This document shows, piece by piece, positions 49,248 through 55,195 of a stretch of 64,000 nt of DNA. The DNA is from Paludibacteraceae bacterium (GTDB lineage: Bacteria > Bacteroidota > Bacteroidia > Bacteroidales > Paludibacteraceae). A program made the position numbers and the translations under genes. The stretch is taken from assembly GCA_024401455.1 (NCBI GenBank), contig JAKSLA010000011.1:1894-65893 (forward strand), in the 5' to 3' direction. Numbering within the stretch: position 1 is the first letter of the stretch; the number at the start of each line of letters is the position of its first letter. The notes beneath the pieces were generated by a model. That model saw only the letters and a program-made list of their open reading frames with translations. It was not told where the DNA came from and made no database searches.

Positions 49248-50591
49248 TTACATTATTTTAGATGCAGCATAAAGAGGGATTATTTTTATGGTTCTCTCTC
49301 CATCTTTTATCTCGTTGAAATTTTCCAAGGAGCATCTTATGGCTTCCGTTAGATGCTTGTCCTTCATGAAAAGATGGAGACTTTTCATTTTCCCACTAGT
49401 GCCAGCTTTGCATTCGATAGGCAGCACTTTGAAATTTTTGCCTGTGATGTAGTCAACCTCAGAACATGCACCATCTTTTATGTTTTCCCAATAAAATAGG
49501 TCGTGAGAACTTGCTGGATTGCTGTGCTTTAACATTTCCCAACCCAAGAACAATTCGGCTAAGCCTCCTTTGTTTACTAGATCTGCAACAGATCCCGTCA
49601 CGATTAGTTCGGTCAACTCGTTTGCACCTCCTAAATCCAGATCTAAAATGCGCAATAAAAGGCCACTGTCTAGATAAAGATATTTTCTAAACTTATCGTT
49701 TATCTCCGCACCTAAGGGAAGTCCGTTAGCTGCAGTGTGGTTAACTCTTTTTATTATGCCTGCATCGCTTAGCATATTTAGAGCTTTTTTTATCTCTTCT
49801 GTTCTATAGCCGCCTTCCACTTTGTTGTAAACGAATTTCTTTCCGTTTTGGGCGACCACACTGAGAAGTGTATTACGAAGTAATTGGGGTGAGATTTTTT
49901 TTGAGTACTTTGCGAAATCGTCGTAGTAGGATGTTTGGATGTCGTCTAGTTCTGACTGACATAGTTTGTAGTCGTGTTTTTTTACCCACATAGCAACGCT
50001 TGCGGGCATACCGCCTATGATTAGGAAATTCCTGTATTGTGTTATCAGTTCGTTATGGATTGCATCGAACAAGGGGCTTTCTGCACTTGCCTCGCGTATT
50101 GCATCCACCCAATTATTTTTGCCGATTGCACAAAGAAATTCATTGAAGGAGAAAGGGTACATGAATAGTGATTTGATGCGTCCTACACCATACGAAGGCA
50201 TTTCTTTAAGAGTGAACTCTAATAAAGAACCAGCTGCAATGACGTGGAGTTCAGGAAAATCTTCTTTGAAAAACCATAGACTTTTTAATGCTTCAGGACA
50301 TGATTGTATTTCGTCCAGGAAAAGTAATGTTTTCCCTGGCTCTACATTTACACCCCAAAGCAATCCTAATTGTTTAGTGATGGTTCGCACATCCGTGTTG
50401 CTTTCAAAAAGAGTTTTGGTGTCGGGCCGTTTCTCGAAGTTCACTTCTAGGAAATATTCGAATTGTATGCCCAAGTTCCTGATCGCACACGATTTACCCA
50501 CTTGTCTTGCTCCTCTTAGTAATAGGGGTTTCCTGTTTTCGCTTTCTTTCCATTCGATTAGGAATTTGTCTATTATTCTATTTATGTACAT
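49248..50591 (-). CDS. AAA-family ATPase with a DUF4143 domain
   Basis: Walker A LLLRGARQVGKS and Walker B LLFLDEIQ. I prefer the MYINRIIDKF start (50591). The track N-terminal extension merely translates the tandem repeats. Confidence 0.85.
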   Translation of the reverse strand: MYINRIIDKFLIEWKESENRKPLLLRGARQVGKSCAIRNLGIQFEYFLEVNFEKRPDTKTLFESNTDVRTITKQLGLLWGVNVEPGKTLLFLDEIQSCPEALKSLWFFKEDFPELHVIAAGSLLEFTLKEMPSYGVGRIKSLFMYPFSFNEFLCAIGKNNWVDAIREASAESPLFDAIHNELITQYRNFLIIGGMPASVAMWVKKHDYKLCQSELDDIQTSYYDDFAKYSKKISPQLLRNTLLSVVAQNGKKFVYNKVEGGYRTEEIKKALNMLSDAGIIKRVNHTAANGLPLGAEINDKFRKYLYLDSGLLLRILDLDLGGANELTELIVTGSVADLVNKGGLAELFLGWEMLKHSNPASSHDLFYWENIKDGACSEVDYITGKNFKVLPIECKAGTSGKMKSLHLFMKDKHLTEAIRCSLENFNEIKDGERTIKIIPLYAASKIM

Positions 50592-50624
50592 AGTATGCTG
50601 ATTTTTATGCAAATATATTATTAA

Positions 50625-50711
50625 TTTGTAAAAATCGAGAGGAATAATGGTGCTATTTTTGTAAAAATCGAGAGGAATAATAGTGCTATTTTTGTAAAAA
50701 TCGAGAGGAAT
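50625..50711. repeat. 33-bp tandem direct repeat, 2.6 copies
   Basis: TTTGTAAAAATCGAGAGGAATAAT(G/A)GTGCTATT at 50625-50657 and 50658-50690, then a partial copy at 50691-50711. Confidence 0.95.
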
Positions 50712-51093
50712 GAGCTCTTGAGAATAATATTGGCTCTGTCCTATTTTGTGACTGATAACGCACAAGGTTAATCCCCTAACGGGGAATCGGTTTGTTCAAC
50801 GCATTGTGCATTGTGATTCTACCAACATTAAACGCCTAACGGCGTATATATGCCAATTTTAATTCTAAAAAGTACCGTGGCACGGAAATATTAGCTTGAG
50901 TAGTCTTCACTCCTCGTGTGTGTTTAACGCGCATTCGCCGTTAGGGTTTCATGTAGGTAGCCCATGTTTTATGTCCGACAGCATATTTTTTCGAAGATGT
51001 ATAAGATAGTTATACGGCTATGTAATAATATATGAGCGGAAGCGTAAAAAAATGTGGTACGATGGTTGTTTGATTGTGCGAATAAGATGTGAT

Positions 51094-51252
51094 ATGTTTG
51101 CAAAAACTAATTTAAATTTTATTGATATGCCAAAGAATACTAGTGACAAAGGATTATTACCTAAACCTAATAATGGAGGAGAGATAATAACTCCAAAACC
51201 CAATAAGCCAAAGATTGATCCCAAAACAGGCAAACAGATTTTGAACGATTAA
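51094..51252 (+). CDS. Candidate small peptide (52 aa; 41 aa from the Met at 51127), Pro/Lys-rich with an internal GG
   Basis: MFAKTNLNFIDMPKNTSDKGLLPKPNNGGEIITPKPNKPKIDPKTGKQILND. Its stop lies 10 nt before the radical SAM gene. Coding status unproven. Confidence 0.35.
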   Translation: MFAKTNLNFIDMPKNTSDKGLLPKPNNGGEIITPKPNKPKIDPKTGKQILND

Positions 51253-51262
51253 ACCATATTGT

Positions 51263-52711
51263 ATGTTAGTAAAGCAATCCAAAAATACATTTATCCGTTT
51301 CATCGGTGAGTATGGATATCTCATGAATCAGATGACGAGGCATGACCGTATCTATGACGATATTGGTGCTGACTTTTTGAAGAGGATTTCGAGAAAAGGT
51401 CAAGAGGTTGATGCGATAGTTGCTGATTTAAAGAGACTTTATGGAGATAGTGTTTCAATTGATGAATTGAAGACTGATTTCTGTGAGTTTATAAAAGATC
51501 TGGCTGATCATAAATTTCTTGTGATTGGTGAAACTGAGGAGGATTTAGAGGCGAACGATGTATCATTCTCTTATAGTCTTGACAATCCGAAAACATTCAT
51601 CAATGATTTTTCTCAGTTTACAACGGATGATATCCAACAGGATTCTCAGACACTAATGGAACAATTGCAACGTAAATATTATCAACTTCATGAACTGCAG
51701 TTTGAGTTGACAAGTCGTTGTAATGAACGTTGCATTCACTGTTATATCCCTAATGCCAAAAAAGATGTGGGCGGTGACATGCCATACGAAAAGGTATGCT
51801 CCCTCATTGATGAGTTTGCTGAGTTAGGTGGTTTCGGTGTCACTCTTTCGGGAGGTGAGGTCTTTATCTATAAGGATATCATGAAGGTGATTCAATATTG
51901 TAGGGAGAAAGATATGTGCGTAGGAGTCTTGTCCAATCTGACAGAATTGAAGGACGAACAGATACCTTTGTTGAAGGAGGCGAATCTTTCTATTGTTCAG
52001 GTTTCTCTTTATAGTATGGATTCGGAAATCCACGATAGAATCACTTTACGAAAGGGCTCTCATGCGAAGACAAAGGCGGCTATTGAGAAGTTGGTGGCGG
52101 CTGACATCCCAGTGCAGATATCGTGTCCGATTATGAAAGCCAATAAAGAGGGTTACGATAAAGTACTTGCCTACGCCCAAAGTCTAAAGGTGAAGGCACA
52201 GACAGATTTTATCATGATGGCACAGGCGGATTTAAATACGCAGAATCTAGCGAATCGTATTGATTTGCAGGAGACGGAACAGGTGATAAGAGATATTATT
52301 GAACATGATGTGAATTACCGAGAACGCATATTAAAGATGGCTCCACTATCGACAAAAGAACCAGAAGTTTTTGCTAATGAACCTTTTTGTGGTGCCGGAG
52401 TCAATTCATGCTGTATTACATCTAATGGTGATGTTTATCCGTGTGCTGGATGGCAAGAATATACCGTGGGTAATGTTTATCAACTCTCTCTGTCTGATAT
52501 TTGGAAAAAGTCAGATAAGCTTCATTATCTGAGAGACTTGAAACAAAAGGATTTGCCGCAATGTATGGCGTGTGAAGCACGTGATTATTGTGCTCCGTGT
52601 TTAGTTCGTAACTACAATGAGAATGGTGGCGATATGTTGAAAGTGACAAAGCATTTTTGCGATGTTGCTTTCCTCAACAAAAGATTAAAAGAAGAGTATT
52701 TCGGGAAATAA
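51263..52711 (+). CDS. Radical SAM/SPASM peptide maturase with an N-terminal PqqD-like (RRE) domain
   Basis: 482 aa. The N-terminal ~95 aa look PqqD-like (FIRFIGEYGYLMNQ...ADFLKRIS...VDAIVADLKRLYG). CNERCIHCY provides the CxxxCxxC motif, and GGEVF is present. The Cys-rich SPASM tail is FCGAGVNSCCITSNGDVYPCAGW...CMACEARDYCAPC. Confidence 0.9.
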   Translation: MLVKQSKNTFIRFIGEYGYLMNQMTRHDRIYDDIGADFLKRISRKGQEVDAIVADLKRLYGDSVSIDELKTDFCEFIKDLADHKFLVIGETEEDLEANDVSFSYSLDNPKTFINDFSQFTTDDIQQDSQTLMEQLQRKYYQLHELQFELTSRCNERCIHCYIPNAKKDVGGDMPYEKVCSLIDEFAELGGFGVTLSGGEVFIYKDIMKVIQYCREKDMCVGVLSNLTELKDEQIPLLKEANLSIVQVSLYSMDSEIHDRITLRKGSHAKTKAAIEKLVAADIPVQISCPIMKANKEGYDKVLAYAQSLKVKAQTDFIMMAQADLNTQNLANRIDLQETEQVIRDIIEHDVNYRERILKMAPLSTKEPEVFANEPFCGAGVNSCCITSNGDVYPCAGWQEYTVGNVYQLSLSDIWKKSDKLHYLRDLKQKDLPQCMACEARDYCAPCLVRNYNENGGDMLKVTKHFCDVAFLNKRLKEEYFGK

Positions 52712-52768
52712 AAACAGAGGTATGCTGAAAATCTGTGATAGAGTAGGCTCACTAAAATTTATATCAAA

Positions 52769-52885
52769 ATGAAAAATTACAAAAAAGCAAAAGTGGTAGC
52801 AAAGAATGCTCCAGTTGGTTCTTACGCAGCAGGTTGTCCAGAGAAGGTAGGAAAATGCTTCTGGACATGTGAGATCAGAGAGTAA
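52769..52885 (+). CDS. Candidate RiPP precursor peptide, 38 aa with three Cys
   Basis: Below the ORF-track length cutoff. Hand translation gives MKNYKKAKVVAKNAPVGSYAAGCPEKVGKCFWTCEIRE. It lies 57 nt after the maturase stop. An 8-bp-stem hairpin follows (GGAGGTGT 52899-52906 / ACACCTCC 52925-52932). Confidence 0.5.
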   Translation: MKNYKKAKVVAKNAPVGSYAAGCPEKVGKCFWTCEIRE

Positions 52886-52952
52886 TTTTTGTGTAAATGG
52901 AGGTGTTGAATAGTTTGACTATAGACACCTCCTCTTTAAATCAGAAAAGGAA

Positions 52953-53132
52953 ATGGAAGATTTGATAATCATAAAAGAAAATTCAATACTAATTACTGAA
53001 AGTACAGTGCTTGATTGGTATAAAAAAATTACAAATAATCAAGAAGTTCCCCAAGAGGAGATGGATGCTATATTAAGAAGATTCAGAGAATTGGTTAATT
53101 ATAGGAATACAAACGGTACAAGGATGCCGTAA
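52953..53132 (+). CDS. Candidate 59-aa protein of unknown function
   Basis: Just below the ORF-track cutoff: MEDLIIIKENSILITESTVLDWYKKITNNQEVPQEEMDAILRRFRELVNYRNTNGTRMP. Its stop lies 3 nt before the amidohydrolase ATG. Confidence 0.4.
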   Translation: MEDLIIIKENSILITESTVLDWYKKITNNQEVPQEEMDAILRRFRELVNYRNTNGTRMP

Positions 53133-53135
53133 GGA

Positions 53136-53921
53136 ATGATTGACTCTCATATTCACATAGGACAATTCTATGACATTTACACAACATCAACAGAACTGAA
53201 GAATTTCCTTGACTCTGTTGATGTTGAGAAATGTGCAGTTTCATCGACAACGATATGTGAGGAGAATTATGCGAAGGTGATAGGGGAGATAAGATCTTTT
53301 ATCATTGAGTTTGGTGCGGCGAATGTGTTCCCGATTTTGTGGGTTACGCCACAAATGATTAAGAACAACGCTTTAAACTTGTTTTTGAATAGTGGAATTG
53401 TGTGGAGGTGTCTGAAGATTCATCCACAATTACATCCGAAAGGTTGGCCGGTTCGCGGCAAAAACTTTCGTGTTCTGATTGAATTGGCAAGGAAAATGCA
53501 TTTGCCTATTCTCATTCACACTGGAGCAGATGACTGTTGTCATGCTGGAAAATATTTAAAACTCATTAAACGGAATGCTGATATAAATTTTATCTTAGCC
53601 CATGGAAGACCATTAAATGAAGCGTTGGAGGTTCTGGCAGCGTGCCCTAATGCGTATGTGGACACTGCATTTATGTCAGTTGACTCTATCGTGGAACTTT
53701 GTAATCGAGGATTTTCCTCTCGTGTGCTTTGGGGATCGGATGTGCCAATACCGCTTTATTTTTTCAGAAACAGTCCCTCTTTTGATATGCGGGAATACTA
53801 CTTGTCGCAGATTGAAGATTTAAAATCAAGGGTGACTTTCGCTGATTTTGAGTTGGTGTCAGAAATGAATTTCAGTCGTGTCTTCTGCTCTGTTGAGAGC
53901 AAAGAGAATTTTTGTGTTTGA
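53136..53921 (+). CDS. Metal-dependent amidohydrolase-superfamily (TIM-barrel) protein
   Basis: 261 aa. N-terminal IDSHIHIG, then KIHPQLH, ILIHTG, ILAHGRP and LWGSDVP, consistent with amidohydrolase_2-type ligand spacing. Confidence 0.7.
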   Translation: MIDSHIHIGQFYDIYTTSTELKNFLDSVDVEKCAVSSTTICEENYAKVIGEIRSFIIEFGAANVFPILWVTPQMIKNNALNLFLNSGIVWRCLKIHPQLHPKGWPVRGKNFRVLIELARKMHLPILIHTGADDCCHAGKYLKLIKRNADINFILAHGRPLNEALEVLAACPNAYVDTAFMSVDSIVELCNRGFSSRVLWGSDVPIPLYFFRNSPSFDMREYYLSQIEDLKSRVTFADFELVSEMNFSRVFCSVESKENFCV

Positions 53922-54031
53922 AAATGATTGAATGATTAACACTGTGCTCGTGTTTTAAATTTGTGTTCTGGTGGCTGTGTTTTTTTTGCTGTTGAGAAAA
54001 AAGTTTGGTTTAATATTAATTGAGTAATTCT

Positions 54032-55195
54032 ATGAAATATAAAATATTAGGTGCTTTTTTTATAGCATTCGGAATGTATGAGATATATATGTTCGCAGAT
54101 GGTGATGGTATGGTTTTCTTCATAAGTATTTTGGTGTTTTTGACAGTATTAGCTTTCTTTAAAGGATGGATTAACAACCGACAAGAAACTGCAGAAAAGG
54201 CATCTGATAGTTTGGAACAAAATTTATCTCAAAAACCGTCAGAAAAAGACTTTGAAACAAAATCGTTAGAATATTTTGAGAGGCTCAGCCGTTGTGAGGA
54301 TGTATTTGTACAATACATCAAATTGGGCAAGGAATATTATTATTACAACAGTCGCGATAAAGAAGAAAGAAATGTTGCAAAGTTGAAAGTCATACAAACA
54401 TCAATAATGTCCTTCCAATCTTTTCAAATTGAAGAACATTTTCGGTCGTTAGGCATAACCTTTTGTAGCTATCCGCTCTCTTATAATTATGCATGTACAT
54501 CGGACATCGATGCGAATTACAATAATATGGGTGATTTTTTTGAGAACAATCGTTTCCCTGATTTGGATGTCGTGCCATATCCTTTACAAGGTGATACTTG
54601 CAGATATGGTGACATTCAAATTGATAAACTTTGTAATACAAAATATGAAGCTCAAAAATTGTCGGCAAATGAACTTGAAGCGTCTTTAGAAGATAGAATG
54701 AAAGAAGATGTTACGTGTATTCCCACCCTATTTAAGTGTGGCACAGTCTTTTATGGAAGGTGTGGAAATAACCCCATTACCAAATATGTAATAGCCAAAA
54801 ATCACTTACTTTCTGATATGACGGTAATGGGAGAAGTGGTAACCAAACAAATGGCGGGAGTAGTGCCTGTTGACGAACTCATAGAAAGTTTAAAAAAAGG
54901 ATATAGACGTATATCCCTTTTTTATGTGGAACCCAAAGATATAGACCTGCTCTTTAAGACAGCAGAAGAACTGAAATCGTATGAAGACAATAAGGGAGAG
55001 TTTTGTTCTATAATAATTAAAGAAGTGAAATCACTTTCTTCTTTCTACTCAGATTCGTTGAAAGATAAGTCGCTTTATTGGTTGTTAGAAAGTAGGTTGT
55101 ATGAATACAAGGAAACTGATGCCAAATATCAGCGGGTACTTGATGCCTGGGAGGAGAGGATGGAAATGTGGGATCGGCAACACGGCACCATTTAA
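54032..55195 (+). CDS. Hypothetical membrane-anchored protein (two N-terminal TM helices)
   Basis: MKYKILGAFFIAFGMYEIYMF...VFFISILVFLTVLAFF, then ~320 soluble residues with no recognisable motif. Start chosen at the first ATG. Confidence 0.55.
   Translation: MKYKILGAFFIAFGMYEIYMFADGDGMVFFISILVFLTVLAFFKGWINNRQETAEKASDSLEQNLSQKPSEKDFETKSLEYFERLSRCEDVFVQYIKLGKEYYYYNSRDKEERNVAKLKVIQTSIMSFQSFQIEEHFRSLGITFCSYPLSYNYACTSDIDANYNNMGDFFENNRFPDLDVVPYPLQGDTCRYGDIQIDKLCNTKYEAQKLSANELEASLEDRMKEDVTCIPTLFKCGTVFYGRCGNNPITKYVIAKNHLLSDMTVMGEVVTKQMAGVVPVDELIESLKKGYRRISLFYVEPKDIDLLFKTAEELKSYEDNKGEFCSIIIKEVKSLSSFYSDSLKDKSLYWLLESRLYEYKETDAKYQRVLDAWEERMEMWDRQHGTI

Follow-up and report, generated by a model that had tools for sequence, protein, structure and literature searches.

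A three-cysteine small ORF in a Paludibacteraceae genome probably encodes the RiPP precursor of its neighbouring RRE-radical SAM-SPASM enzyme

We analysed a 64,000-nucleotide (nt) stretch of DNA from a Paludibacteraceae bacterium (assembly GCA_024401455.1, contig JAKSLA010000011.1, positions 1,894 to 65,893 of the forward strand), hereafter the window. It comes from contig C13 of a 3.27-Mb gut-metagenome-assembled genome (MAG), of the same family as the Paludibacteraceae-labelled MAGs that carry loci L004 and L016 of our comparison. Immediately behind a gene for a radical S-adenosylmethionine (SAM) enzyme, the window contains a 38-codon open reading frame (ORF) at 52769-52885. Sequence comparison indicates that this ORF is very probably a genuine precursor of the enzyme encoded at 51263-52711. 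The explanation that accounts for the locus as a whole is also likely: the ORF would specify a peptide synthesized on the ribosome and modified after translation (a RiPP), matured by the adjacent enzyme, which combines a RiPP recognition element (RRE), a radical SAM domain and a SPASM domain. The features concerned are as follows.

51263-52711, + strand: putative peptide maturase of 482 amino acids (aa), with a PqqD-like RRE (aa 32-86), a radical SAM domain and a SPASM domain (aa 376-438)
52714-52749, + strand: DUF805b-type 5' leader motif, a 4-bp hairpin with a conserved AGAGUAGGC tail, ending 19 nt before the peptide ATG
52769-52885, + strand: candidate precursor peptide gene, 38 aa plus stop, delineated by translation, family profile and conservation
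52899-52932, + strand: stem-loop right behind the stop codon of the peptide, GGAGGUGUU...GACACCUCC, with a weak U-tract, UCUUUAAAUC, after it
52953-53132, + strand: 'variable slot' ORF of 59 aa, ending 3 nt ahead of the amidohydrolase start
53136-53921, + strand: Amidohydro_2 metal-dependent TIM barrel of 261 aa, the other enzyme conserved in the cassette

Translation of the 52769-52885 ORF gives MKNYKKAKVVAKNAPVGSYAAGCPEKVGKCFWTCEIRE, which divides into a leader, MKNYKKAKVVAKNAPVGSYAAGCP, and a core, EKVGKCFWTCEIRE. Re-translation reproduced exactly the 38-aa product described in the initial annotation of the sequence, with its cysteines at positions 23, 30 and 34 and the stretch CFWTC, and placed the ORF right after the radical SAM gene as had been claimed, with 57 nt between the stop of the 482-aa ORF, at 52711, and the start of the peptide. 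The gene had also been described as unannotated, and indeed the exact peptide was not found in a collection of ~15 billion proteins; it has therefore been missed by gene callers. Scans of the window peptide and of typical family members against Pfam, NCBIfam and PADLOC returned nothing meaningful. With the family peptides as queries, NCBIfam gave 0 matches at E values up to 10, and thus neither the SCIFF model nor any other curated peptide model was hit. Comparison with other genomes confirmed that the 38-codon ORF is a real gene, far beyond a chance frame: 80 loci encode homologues of the enzyme, and in 65 of them a profile hidden Markov model (HMM) of the peptide found a significant same-strand match.

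These 80 loci were recovered by scanning one genome per species for homologues of the PqqD(RRE)-radical SAM-SPASM enzyme, which are 35-89% identical to it and occur in several phyla. Their host MAGs are labelled Bacteroidales, Treponema and other Spirochaetes, Fibrobacterota and Lentisphaeria/Victivallaceae, and also Verrucomicrobiota, Desulfuromonadaceae, Competibacteraceae and a few Bacillota. Among close relatives the enzyme is sporadic, being present in 2 of 61 genomes, the window's own included. The peptide HMM, built from 14 peptides, detected a significant homologous small ORF in the 65 loci, every one on the strand of the enzyme gene, and most of the HMM-negative loci are contigs that end near the enzyme gene. 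Divergent precursor variants were present in three further loci, L019, L021 and L080. Homologous small ORFs thus sit beside orthologous maturases in 65-68 of the 80 loci, a result decisively opposed to the refuting condition named in the initial annotation, an absence of conserved small-ORF homologues from syntenic loci. Loci L019 (3618-3918) and L021 (3627-3927) each encode two tandem 39-40-aa peptides of the form MKKYQKVQRLASSG..FA[AN]C..YCG..NYKA[RF], and the L080 variant (2706-2921) reads MEYKKPAVLAKS..AEC..PC; the leader core Y-x-K-x-x-x-x-A is retained throughout this subfamily. Beyond the loci compared here, a profile of 31 peptides matched 2324 protein clusters (90% identity) at E <=1e-3 among 5.8 billion proteins. 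Those that bear a name are all called 'hypothetical protein', and none contains a Pfam domain. A reciprocal look-up from two of the clustered peptides revealed a 483-493-aa Radical_SAM+SPASM gene downstream on their contigs, followed, on a Fibrobacter contig, by an Amidohydro_2 gene.

Alignment of the 66 unique peptides, which are 37-55 aa long (median 42), yielded the pattern M-x-Y-x-K-P-x-x-x-A-[KQ]-N-x3-G-S-[YF]-A-A-G-C-P, a variable stretch, and C-x-x-C-[ED]-[RIL]-[TAS]-x. Conservation is distributed as follows, positions being counted from the motif Cys.

Tyr at -19: 65 of 65 peptides
Lys at -17: 64 of 65
Ala at -12: 66 of 66
Asn at -10: 61 of 66
Block G-S-[YF]-A-A-G-C-P: nearly invariant across the 66 peptides
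Aromatic residue at -4: 57 Tyr and 9 Phe of 66
Stretch from the motif Cys to the final Cys: 10-27 residues, mostly polar, rich in Gly, Ser, Asn, Ala and Thr
C-terminal end C-x-x-C-[ED] plus 2-4 residues: 57 of 66
Cxxx[DE] contained: 60 of 66
Acidic residue following the last Cys: 62 of 66
Exactly three Cys: 54 of 66

By this alignment, residues 1-24 of the window peptide form the conserved leader, of RRE type, and the remainder a hypervariable polar loop closed by the conserved Cys motif, which has a fixed tail of four residues; the split into leader and core given in the initial annotation was right in outline. The core changes much more quickly than either the leader or the enzyme. Across locus pairs with an enzyme identity of 90% or more, identity is 94% for the leader and 40% for the core. 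In the extreme case of L039 and L040, both enzymes and leaders are 100% identical and the cores 37%. At the DNA level these two loci are almost the same upstream of the gene, in the leader and in the 3' hairpin, and a patch of ~40 nt that codes for the loop is scrambled. The patch carries indels and is visible in an alignment (A4) of L039:150-520, L040:2525-2895 and L043:3373-3743. It may reflect allele replacement by recombination, or intense diversifying selection on the loop itself. A diversity-generating retroelement was considered as its source and set aside: the changes in A4 are not adenine-specific, and the cassette lacks a conserved reverse transcriptase.

The enzyme has the architecture expected of a peptide maturase. 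It scored over the Pfam cut-offs for PF05402 (24.7 bits), PF04055 (81.1 bits) and PF13186 (44.6 bits), and its radical SAM core motif, CNERCIHC, conforms to CX3CX2C. With these domains and a co-occurring short precursor of conserved leader and variable core, the locus has the predicted hallmarks of a generic RRE-dependent radical SAM/SPASM RiPP system. None of the NCBIfam equivalogs reached its cut-off when compared to the enzyme. The scores, highest for AhbD, MftC and AlbA, were 127 bits against 500 for AhbD, 108 against 265 for MftC (TIGR03962) and 97 against 381 for PqqE (TIGR02109); among sactisynthase models, 105 against 850 for AlbA (NF012164), 93 against 625 for StsB (NF045574) and 73 against 300 for SkfB (TIGR04403); and, for the ranthipeptide model PapB (NF047865), 64 against 340. 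The nearest solved structures were those of the peptide maturases SkfB (6efn, E 2.9e-16), PqqE, CteB and SuiB. The likeness to sactipeptide and ranthipeptide systems that had been noted from the sequence therefore stands as a resemblance; membership of a named family does not, with the curated maturase models far under their cut-offs, and the cassette is not fileable under a named sactipeptide or ranthipeptide family. A PADLOC match of the enzyme to pVip was set aside, as it reflects the shared radical SAM core only. Some cassettes carry, directly upstream of the SPASM enzyme, an extra radical SAM gene of 342-390 aa without SPASM domain (L121-L127; 6498-7526; 5445-6617), about 14 of the 80 loci have a second homologue of the enzyme, and L048 has two amidohydrolase genes. 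These arrangements suggest tandem or expanded cassettes.

To delimit the cassette, ORFs of at least 60 aa were clustered across 81 loci. Only two protein families proved widely common to them, the enzyme and a ~253-aa hydrolase, the latter encoded immediately downstream, in the same orientation, in 65 of the 81 loci. The peptide, the enzyme and the Amidohydro_2 hydrolase were shown to form a conserved three-gene cassette that has spread horizontally. Peptide, small ORF, enzyme and hydrolase follow one another in this order in every locus except two; the conserved cassette also has the hairpin behind the peptide, and its small ORF is not conserved in sequence. The exceptions are the window and L004, in which peptide and small ORF sit between enzyme and hydrolase; the unit has therefore moved in this lineage. 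The enzymes of these two loci are 89% identical and their leaders nearly identical, whereas the cores have diverged. A Pro/Lys-rich 66-aa ORF upstream of the enzyme was rejected as the precursor, since it is not conserved, even in L004.

The hydrolase encoded at 53136-53921 scored 39.7 bits against PF04909 (cut-off 26.4). Its residues H5 and H7 (the HxH motif), H96, H128, H156 and D202 are invariant in 40 of 40 orthologues. An AlphaFold2 model (pLDDT 96.1) matched LigI, LigY and ACMSD with a Foldseek probability of 1.0. The nearest folds were LigI-type lactonases, LigY, ACMSD, IDCase and uncharacterised Amidohydro_2 proteins, at a TM-score of ~0.68 and 12-15% identity. Score, TIM barrel and the HxH plus His/His/Asp set all place the protein in Amidohydro_2, and the model predicts an intact metal hydrolase or decarboxylase-type barrel. 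A precedent for such an enzyme in a RiPP cluster is provided by bottromycin, whose metal-dependent amidohydrolase-superfamily enzyme, PurAH or BotAH, takes off the follower peptide and shows that an amidohydrolase fold can cut a peptide bond of a modified precursor (PMC10885120). By their descriptions the two enzymes differ, PurAH being described as dinuclear and the window enzyme belonging to the LigI/LigY/ACMSD-like Amidohydro_2 branch with its HxH/H/H/D set. By analogy, the hydrolase might act as a leader or follower peptidase, a role to which we give somewhat less than even weight.

Just upstream of the peptide, positions 52714-52749 matched the cis-regulatory Rfam DUF805b motif (RF02914) with 33.9 bits (E 3.3e-7), 1.7 bits under the gathering threshold of 35.6, and the match spans all 35 model positions, in sequence as well as in hairpin. 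At the equivalent site before the peptide, the Bacteroidales loci L004, L006, L008, L011 and L079 scored 38.9-48.4 bits, above the gathering threshold. Within the order, 105 of 151 genomes contain the motif. Thirty other copies (L091-L120) were inspected; they end 17-29 nt ahead of the ATG of widely differing genes. Most of these encode small GG-leader peptides or proteins with a signal peptide, and one (L115) encodes a DUF805 protein; the GG-leader peptides behind the motif in L100, L105, L108 (three in tandem) and L117 are bacteriocin-like. The only other strong copy in the window's genome (G000:C70:12245-12279, L084) stands ahead of a 25-codon ORF, MNIDLKELKFKFKIGKATISIEIKW, which is again followed by a hairpin. 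The motif thus behaves as a generic Bacteroidales 5' leader: Rfam named it after DUF805 genes, whereas here it leads a putative RiPP precursor.

The peptide gene is also followed by a structured element. The hairpin claimed at 52899-52932 is real: it folds with a minimum free energy of -21.1 kcal/mol (z -4.65), a value equalled by 0 of 200 shuffled sequences, and consists of a 9-bp outer stem and an inner 5-bp stem. When the 80 nt after the stop were surveyed in other loci, a hairpin with z < -2 followed the peptide in 54 of 68 (median z -3.69), and followed the enzyme stop, used as control site, in 10 of 79 (median z -0.56). A hairpin behind the precursor is therefore a family-wide feature. 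Its stem sequences differ by lineage, with GAGAGGGC/GCCCUCUC and a T-run in L004 versus GGAGGUGU/ACACCUCC in the window, at the same place. Several Treponema-type loci share a conserved terminator after the peptide, CCCCGCCATGTAAAATAAGGTGGG plus a T-run. In the window, no Bacteroidetes -7 box (TAnnTTTG) was found between enzyme and peptide, which makes co-transcription of the two genes probable. The nearest boxes on the + strand lie upstream of the enzyme gene, at 50654-50661, 50687-50694 and 51093-51100; those at 50654 and 50687 are located within a short tandem repeat. Scans for sigma-70-type promoters and strict terminators were uninformative, as expected for Bacteroidetes. It had been proposed that the hairpin sets a high ratio of precursor to enzyme transcript. 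This idea fits the usual, peptide-first order better, but it does not hold in the window: since the enzyme gene lies upstream and no box separates the two genes, termination at the hairpin cannot raise the peptide-to-radical-SAM ratio. By this reasoning, two functions are left for the window hairpin, attenuation of read-through towards the small ORF and the amidohydrolase, or stabilisation of a 3' end.

In the model that we favour, the PqqD-like domain of the enzyme would bind the leader through ..Y.K[PA]...A[KQ]N.., and the radical SAM/SPASM domain would form one or more thioether crosslinks from one or more of the three conserved cysteines. The most plausible links would join a Cys to the conserved acidic residue (Glu/Asp) that follows the last Cys, in a Cxxx[D/E]-like manner, and/or Cys23 to the C-terminal segment. 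Such crosslinks would close a macrocycle that displays the hypervariable loop, and two leftover cysteines could pair as a disulfide. The Zn-type amidohydrolase would then remove the leader, or carry out some other hydrolytic or decarboxylative tailoring. The peptide gene, with its DUF805b leader RNA, ORF and stem-loop, may constitute a self-contained expression unit, which, together with the variable small ORF, has been relocated in this lineage from upstream of the maturase to between maturase and amidohydrolase.

Whether the chemistry is indeed that of Cys-derived thioethers is, by analogy with characterised systems, an evenly balanced question. Thioethers are favoured because the number of conserved Cys is odd, because C-x-x-C-[E/D] reads as the Cxxx(D/E) motif on which PapB acts (PMC12715619), and because the solved structure that matches best is that of the sactisynthase SkfB, whose product, SkfA, bears one thioether and one disulfide (PMC6231123). 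Ranthipeptide/SCIFF systems (PapA-PapB, freyrasin; CteA-CteB, thermocellin) likewise place an RRE-radical SAM-SPASM maturase beside a short Cys precursor, the family's C-x-x-C-[E/D] resembles the PapB donor-acceptor motif, and CteB is among the structure matches. Unlike them, the window family has only three Cys, a single candidate motif in place of many repeats, conserved Cys set apart by a long hypervariable loop, a conserved amidohydrolase partner and, in the window, the spacing Cxxxx-E. Compared with the sactipeptide systems (SkfA-SkfB, AlbA/subtilosin, StsB), SkfB is the top solved structure, AlbA and StsB are among the better NCBIfam matches, and the thioether plus disulfide of SkfA offers a natural use for three cysteines. 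However, SkfB has a twitch domain and the window enzyme a full SPASM domain, the hosts of the window family are mostly diderm gut anaerobes and not Bacillota, and the window cassette is without ABC exporter, peptidase or head-to-tail cyclisation genes.

Several observations weigh against this model, or against its thioether component. The curated sactisynthase and ranthipeptide models are all below cut-off, so that the chemistry is not assignable from sequence, and the haem and cofactor enzymes AhbD, NirJ2 and MftC score as high on the maturase as AlbA and StsB. The window peptide itself is atypical, with CFWTC (spacing 3, seen in 2 of 66 peptides) in place of CxxC. It reads C-F-W-T-C-E, that is Cxxxx-E, which puts Cys30 and Glu35 at i+5 and not at the i+4 of Cxxx[D/E]. 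The motif is not universal either, the divergent L019/L021/L080 subfamily having two Cys only and no CxxCE. The clustering across the 81 loci revealed no conserved exporter or dedicated protease in the cassette, and the nearest characterised relatives of the hydrolase are lactonases, C-C hydrolases and decarboxylases, not peptidases. Finally, a search of sequencing runs found the stretch in gut-metagenome DNA only, and in no RNA run.

Four alternatives to a thioether-bearing RiPP were considered. The ORF could be a genuine precursor of an enzyme with another chemistry, which would crosslink the invariant aromatic residue through a C-C or C-O bond, epimerise the peptide or otherwise edit its backbone, the Cys serving as disulfide partners or metal ligands. 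The aromatic at -4 from the motif Cys is indeed invariant (57 Y and 9 F of 66) and is retained, as F-A-[AN]-C, in the divergent subfamily that lacks CxxCE. In addition, [YF]-A-A is formally an aromatic-X-X cyclophane-type motif, and similarly scoring SPASM enzymes, PqqE, MftC, SuiB and WgkB, make C-C bonds. Against this, the odd number of three conserved Cys in 54 of 66 peptides is simplest with at least one non-disulfide Cys, an acidic residue is conserved after the last Cys in 62 of 66, and the best solved-structure match is a sactisynthase, SkfB. We regard this alternative as rather unlikely. The peptide could also be the sacrificial precursor of a small PQQ- or mycofactocin-like cofactor, excised by the amidohydrolase and cell proteases while the loop is discarded. 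MftC (108 bits) and PqqE (97 bits) rank with the better NCBIfam matches, the cassette has no conserved exporter or immunity gene, the tail of four fixed residues is reminiscent of cofactor precursors that are defined at their C-terminus, and Amidohydro_2 relatives act on small aromatic acids and lactones. Yet the MftC and PqqE scores are far under their cut-offs of 265 and 381, the core is hypervariable where a cofactor precursor should have an invariant one, and hypervariability between identical flanks implies selection on the loop, unlike a discarded spacer. The cassette is, moreover, sporadic (2 of 61 related genomes) and lies among toxin-antitoxin and regulator genes. A cofactor precursor is thus very unlikely.

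The remaining two alternatives deny that the ORF is the substrate. If it encoded a real small protein that travels with the enzyme, for example a metal-binding accessory with Cys ligands, a chaperone or a regulator, its three conserved Cys, including a CxxC, could bind metal, and one family member has a weak, chance-level match to a PHD finger (E 0.03). This is highly improbable: the enzyme has a dedicated peptide-recognition domain (PqqD/RRE), the cassette offers no other conserved candidate substrate, and ~40 aa with a hypervariable centre and a conserved, strand-like N-terminal motif is standard precursor anatomy. That the true substrate is instead the Pro/Lys-rich ORF ending 10 nt before the maturase (51052-51252 or 51094-51252), with the 38-aa ORF incidental, is scarcely credible. 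This ORF is directly upstream of the enzyme, the usual position of a precursor, but tblastn found homologues in 0 of 80 loci, L004 with its 89%-identical enzyme included, and L004 has an unrelated 97-aa ORF at that place.

Around the conserved core, the gene content varies between lineages. Most loci examined have an ORF of 59-113 aa behind the peptide and hairpin, which usually abuts or overlaps the next start codon. These variable-slot ORFs share no detectable similarity between lineages (gaps in L006-L079). For the 59-aa ORF of the window, tblastn gave 0 matches, L004 included, Pfam, NCBIfam and PADLOC scans returned nothing meaningful, and L004 has an unrelated 70-aa ORF in the slot. Some of the variable-slot ORFs have an N-terminal transmembrane helix (L029, L039, L040, L043), and most are acidic and helical; they may have an immunity or partner role. 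One further ORF of the window lies beyond the hydrolase.

54020-55195, + strand: 391-aa ORF, no match in Pfam, NCBIfam or PADLOC, lineage-specific and outside the conserved core

Its only homologue is in L004 (421 aa, with an N-terminal hydrophobic segment). On the other side, divergent to the cassette, the window encodes an AAA_14/DUF4143 ATPase (49248-50765, - strand), a PADLOC candidate system (PDC-S01, E 5e-133). Such a gene also lies divergently beside the cassette in 8 of the 81 loci, and the P0061 contigs (L121-L124, 1831-4545) have two copies of it. The association with the cassette may be coincidental; genes of this sort are common in variable regions. In 16 loci, of Treponema type, a divergent XRE-type helix-turn-helix gene lies upstream of the peptide (e.g. 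L040 2134-2463, L050 3416-3944). Five Treponema-type loci have a RelB-like gene between peptide and enzyme, paired in three of the five with a YafQ-like gene.

Taken together, the system is of a known kind, an RRE-radical SAM-SPASM RiPP with a Cys precursor. It is set apart from the named sactipeptides and ranthipeptides by its three-Cys framework with a hypervariable loop, its Amidohydro_2 partner, its DUF805b leader and its predominance in diderm gut anaerobes. Neither the peptide nor the enzyme family has a Pfam or NCBIfam family model, and no description of the family was found in the searchable full-text literature, a scope that excludes subscription-only work, such that an earlier bioinformatic listing is possible. 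A bolder reading, which we advance tentatively and consider on balance unlikely, is that the cassette represents a new class of RiPPs, one that belongs to diderm gut anaerobes (Treponema, Bacteroidales, Fibrobacterota, Lentisphaeria). In such a class the enzyme would staple G-S-Y-A-A-G-C-P to C-x-x-C-E and thereby display a loop of 10-27 residues with strain-level specificity, the Amidohydro_2 protein would perform a new maturation step, and DUF805b would be a leader of exported products. If this reading is true, the variation of the loop and of the small ORF would reflect strain-level specificity, either narrow-spectrum antagonism with cognate immunity or pherotype-like signalling, and the DUF805b RNA would serve Bacteroidales as a leader reserved for exported peptides and proteins that are strongly expressed. 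An antimicrobial role, with cognate immunity from the variable small ORF, or a role in strain-specific signalling, remains speculation, raised because the loop is hypervariable and other DUF805b-led genes encode exported products.

To our knowledge, the RiPPs of Gram-negative gut anaerobes are barely charted, Bacteroidales and Treponema being usually scored as RiPP-poor, and we know of no Amidohydro_2 fold that acts on peptides. Most precursors of the present family are unannotated or labelled hypothetical. The cassette that they belong to is compact and easily cloned, with three conserved genes and thousands of natural core variants (2324 clusters). Should the Cys staple around the variable loop prove true, the family would provide a natural display scaffold and a macrocyclisation biocatalyst tolerant of loop sequence. 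The amidohydrolase could contribute a novel kind of tailoring or of leader removal to RiPP maturation. The link to DUF805b gives a functional handle on an orphan Rfam motif, and the strain-level hypervariability of the loop suggests that the products take part in competition or recognition in gut and rumen communities.

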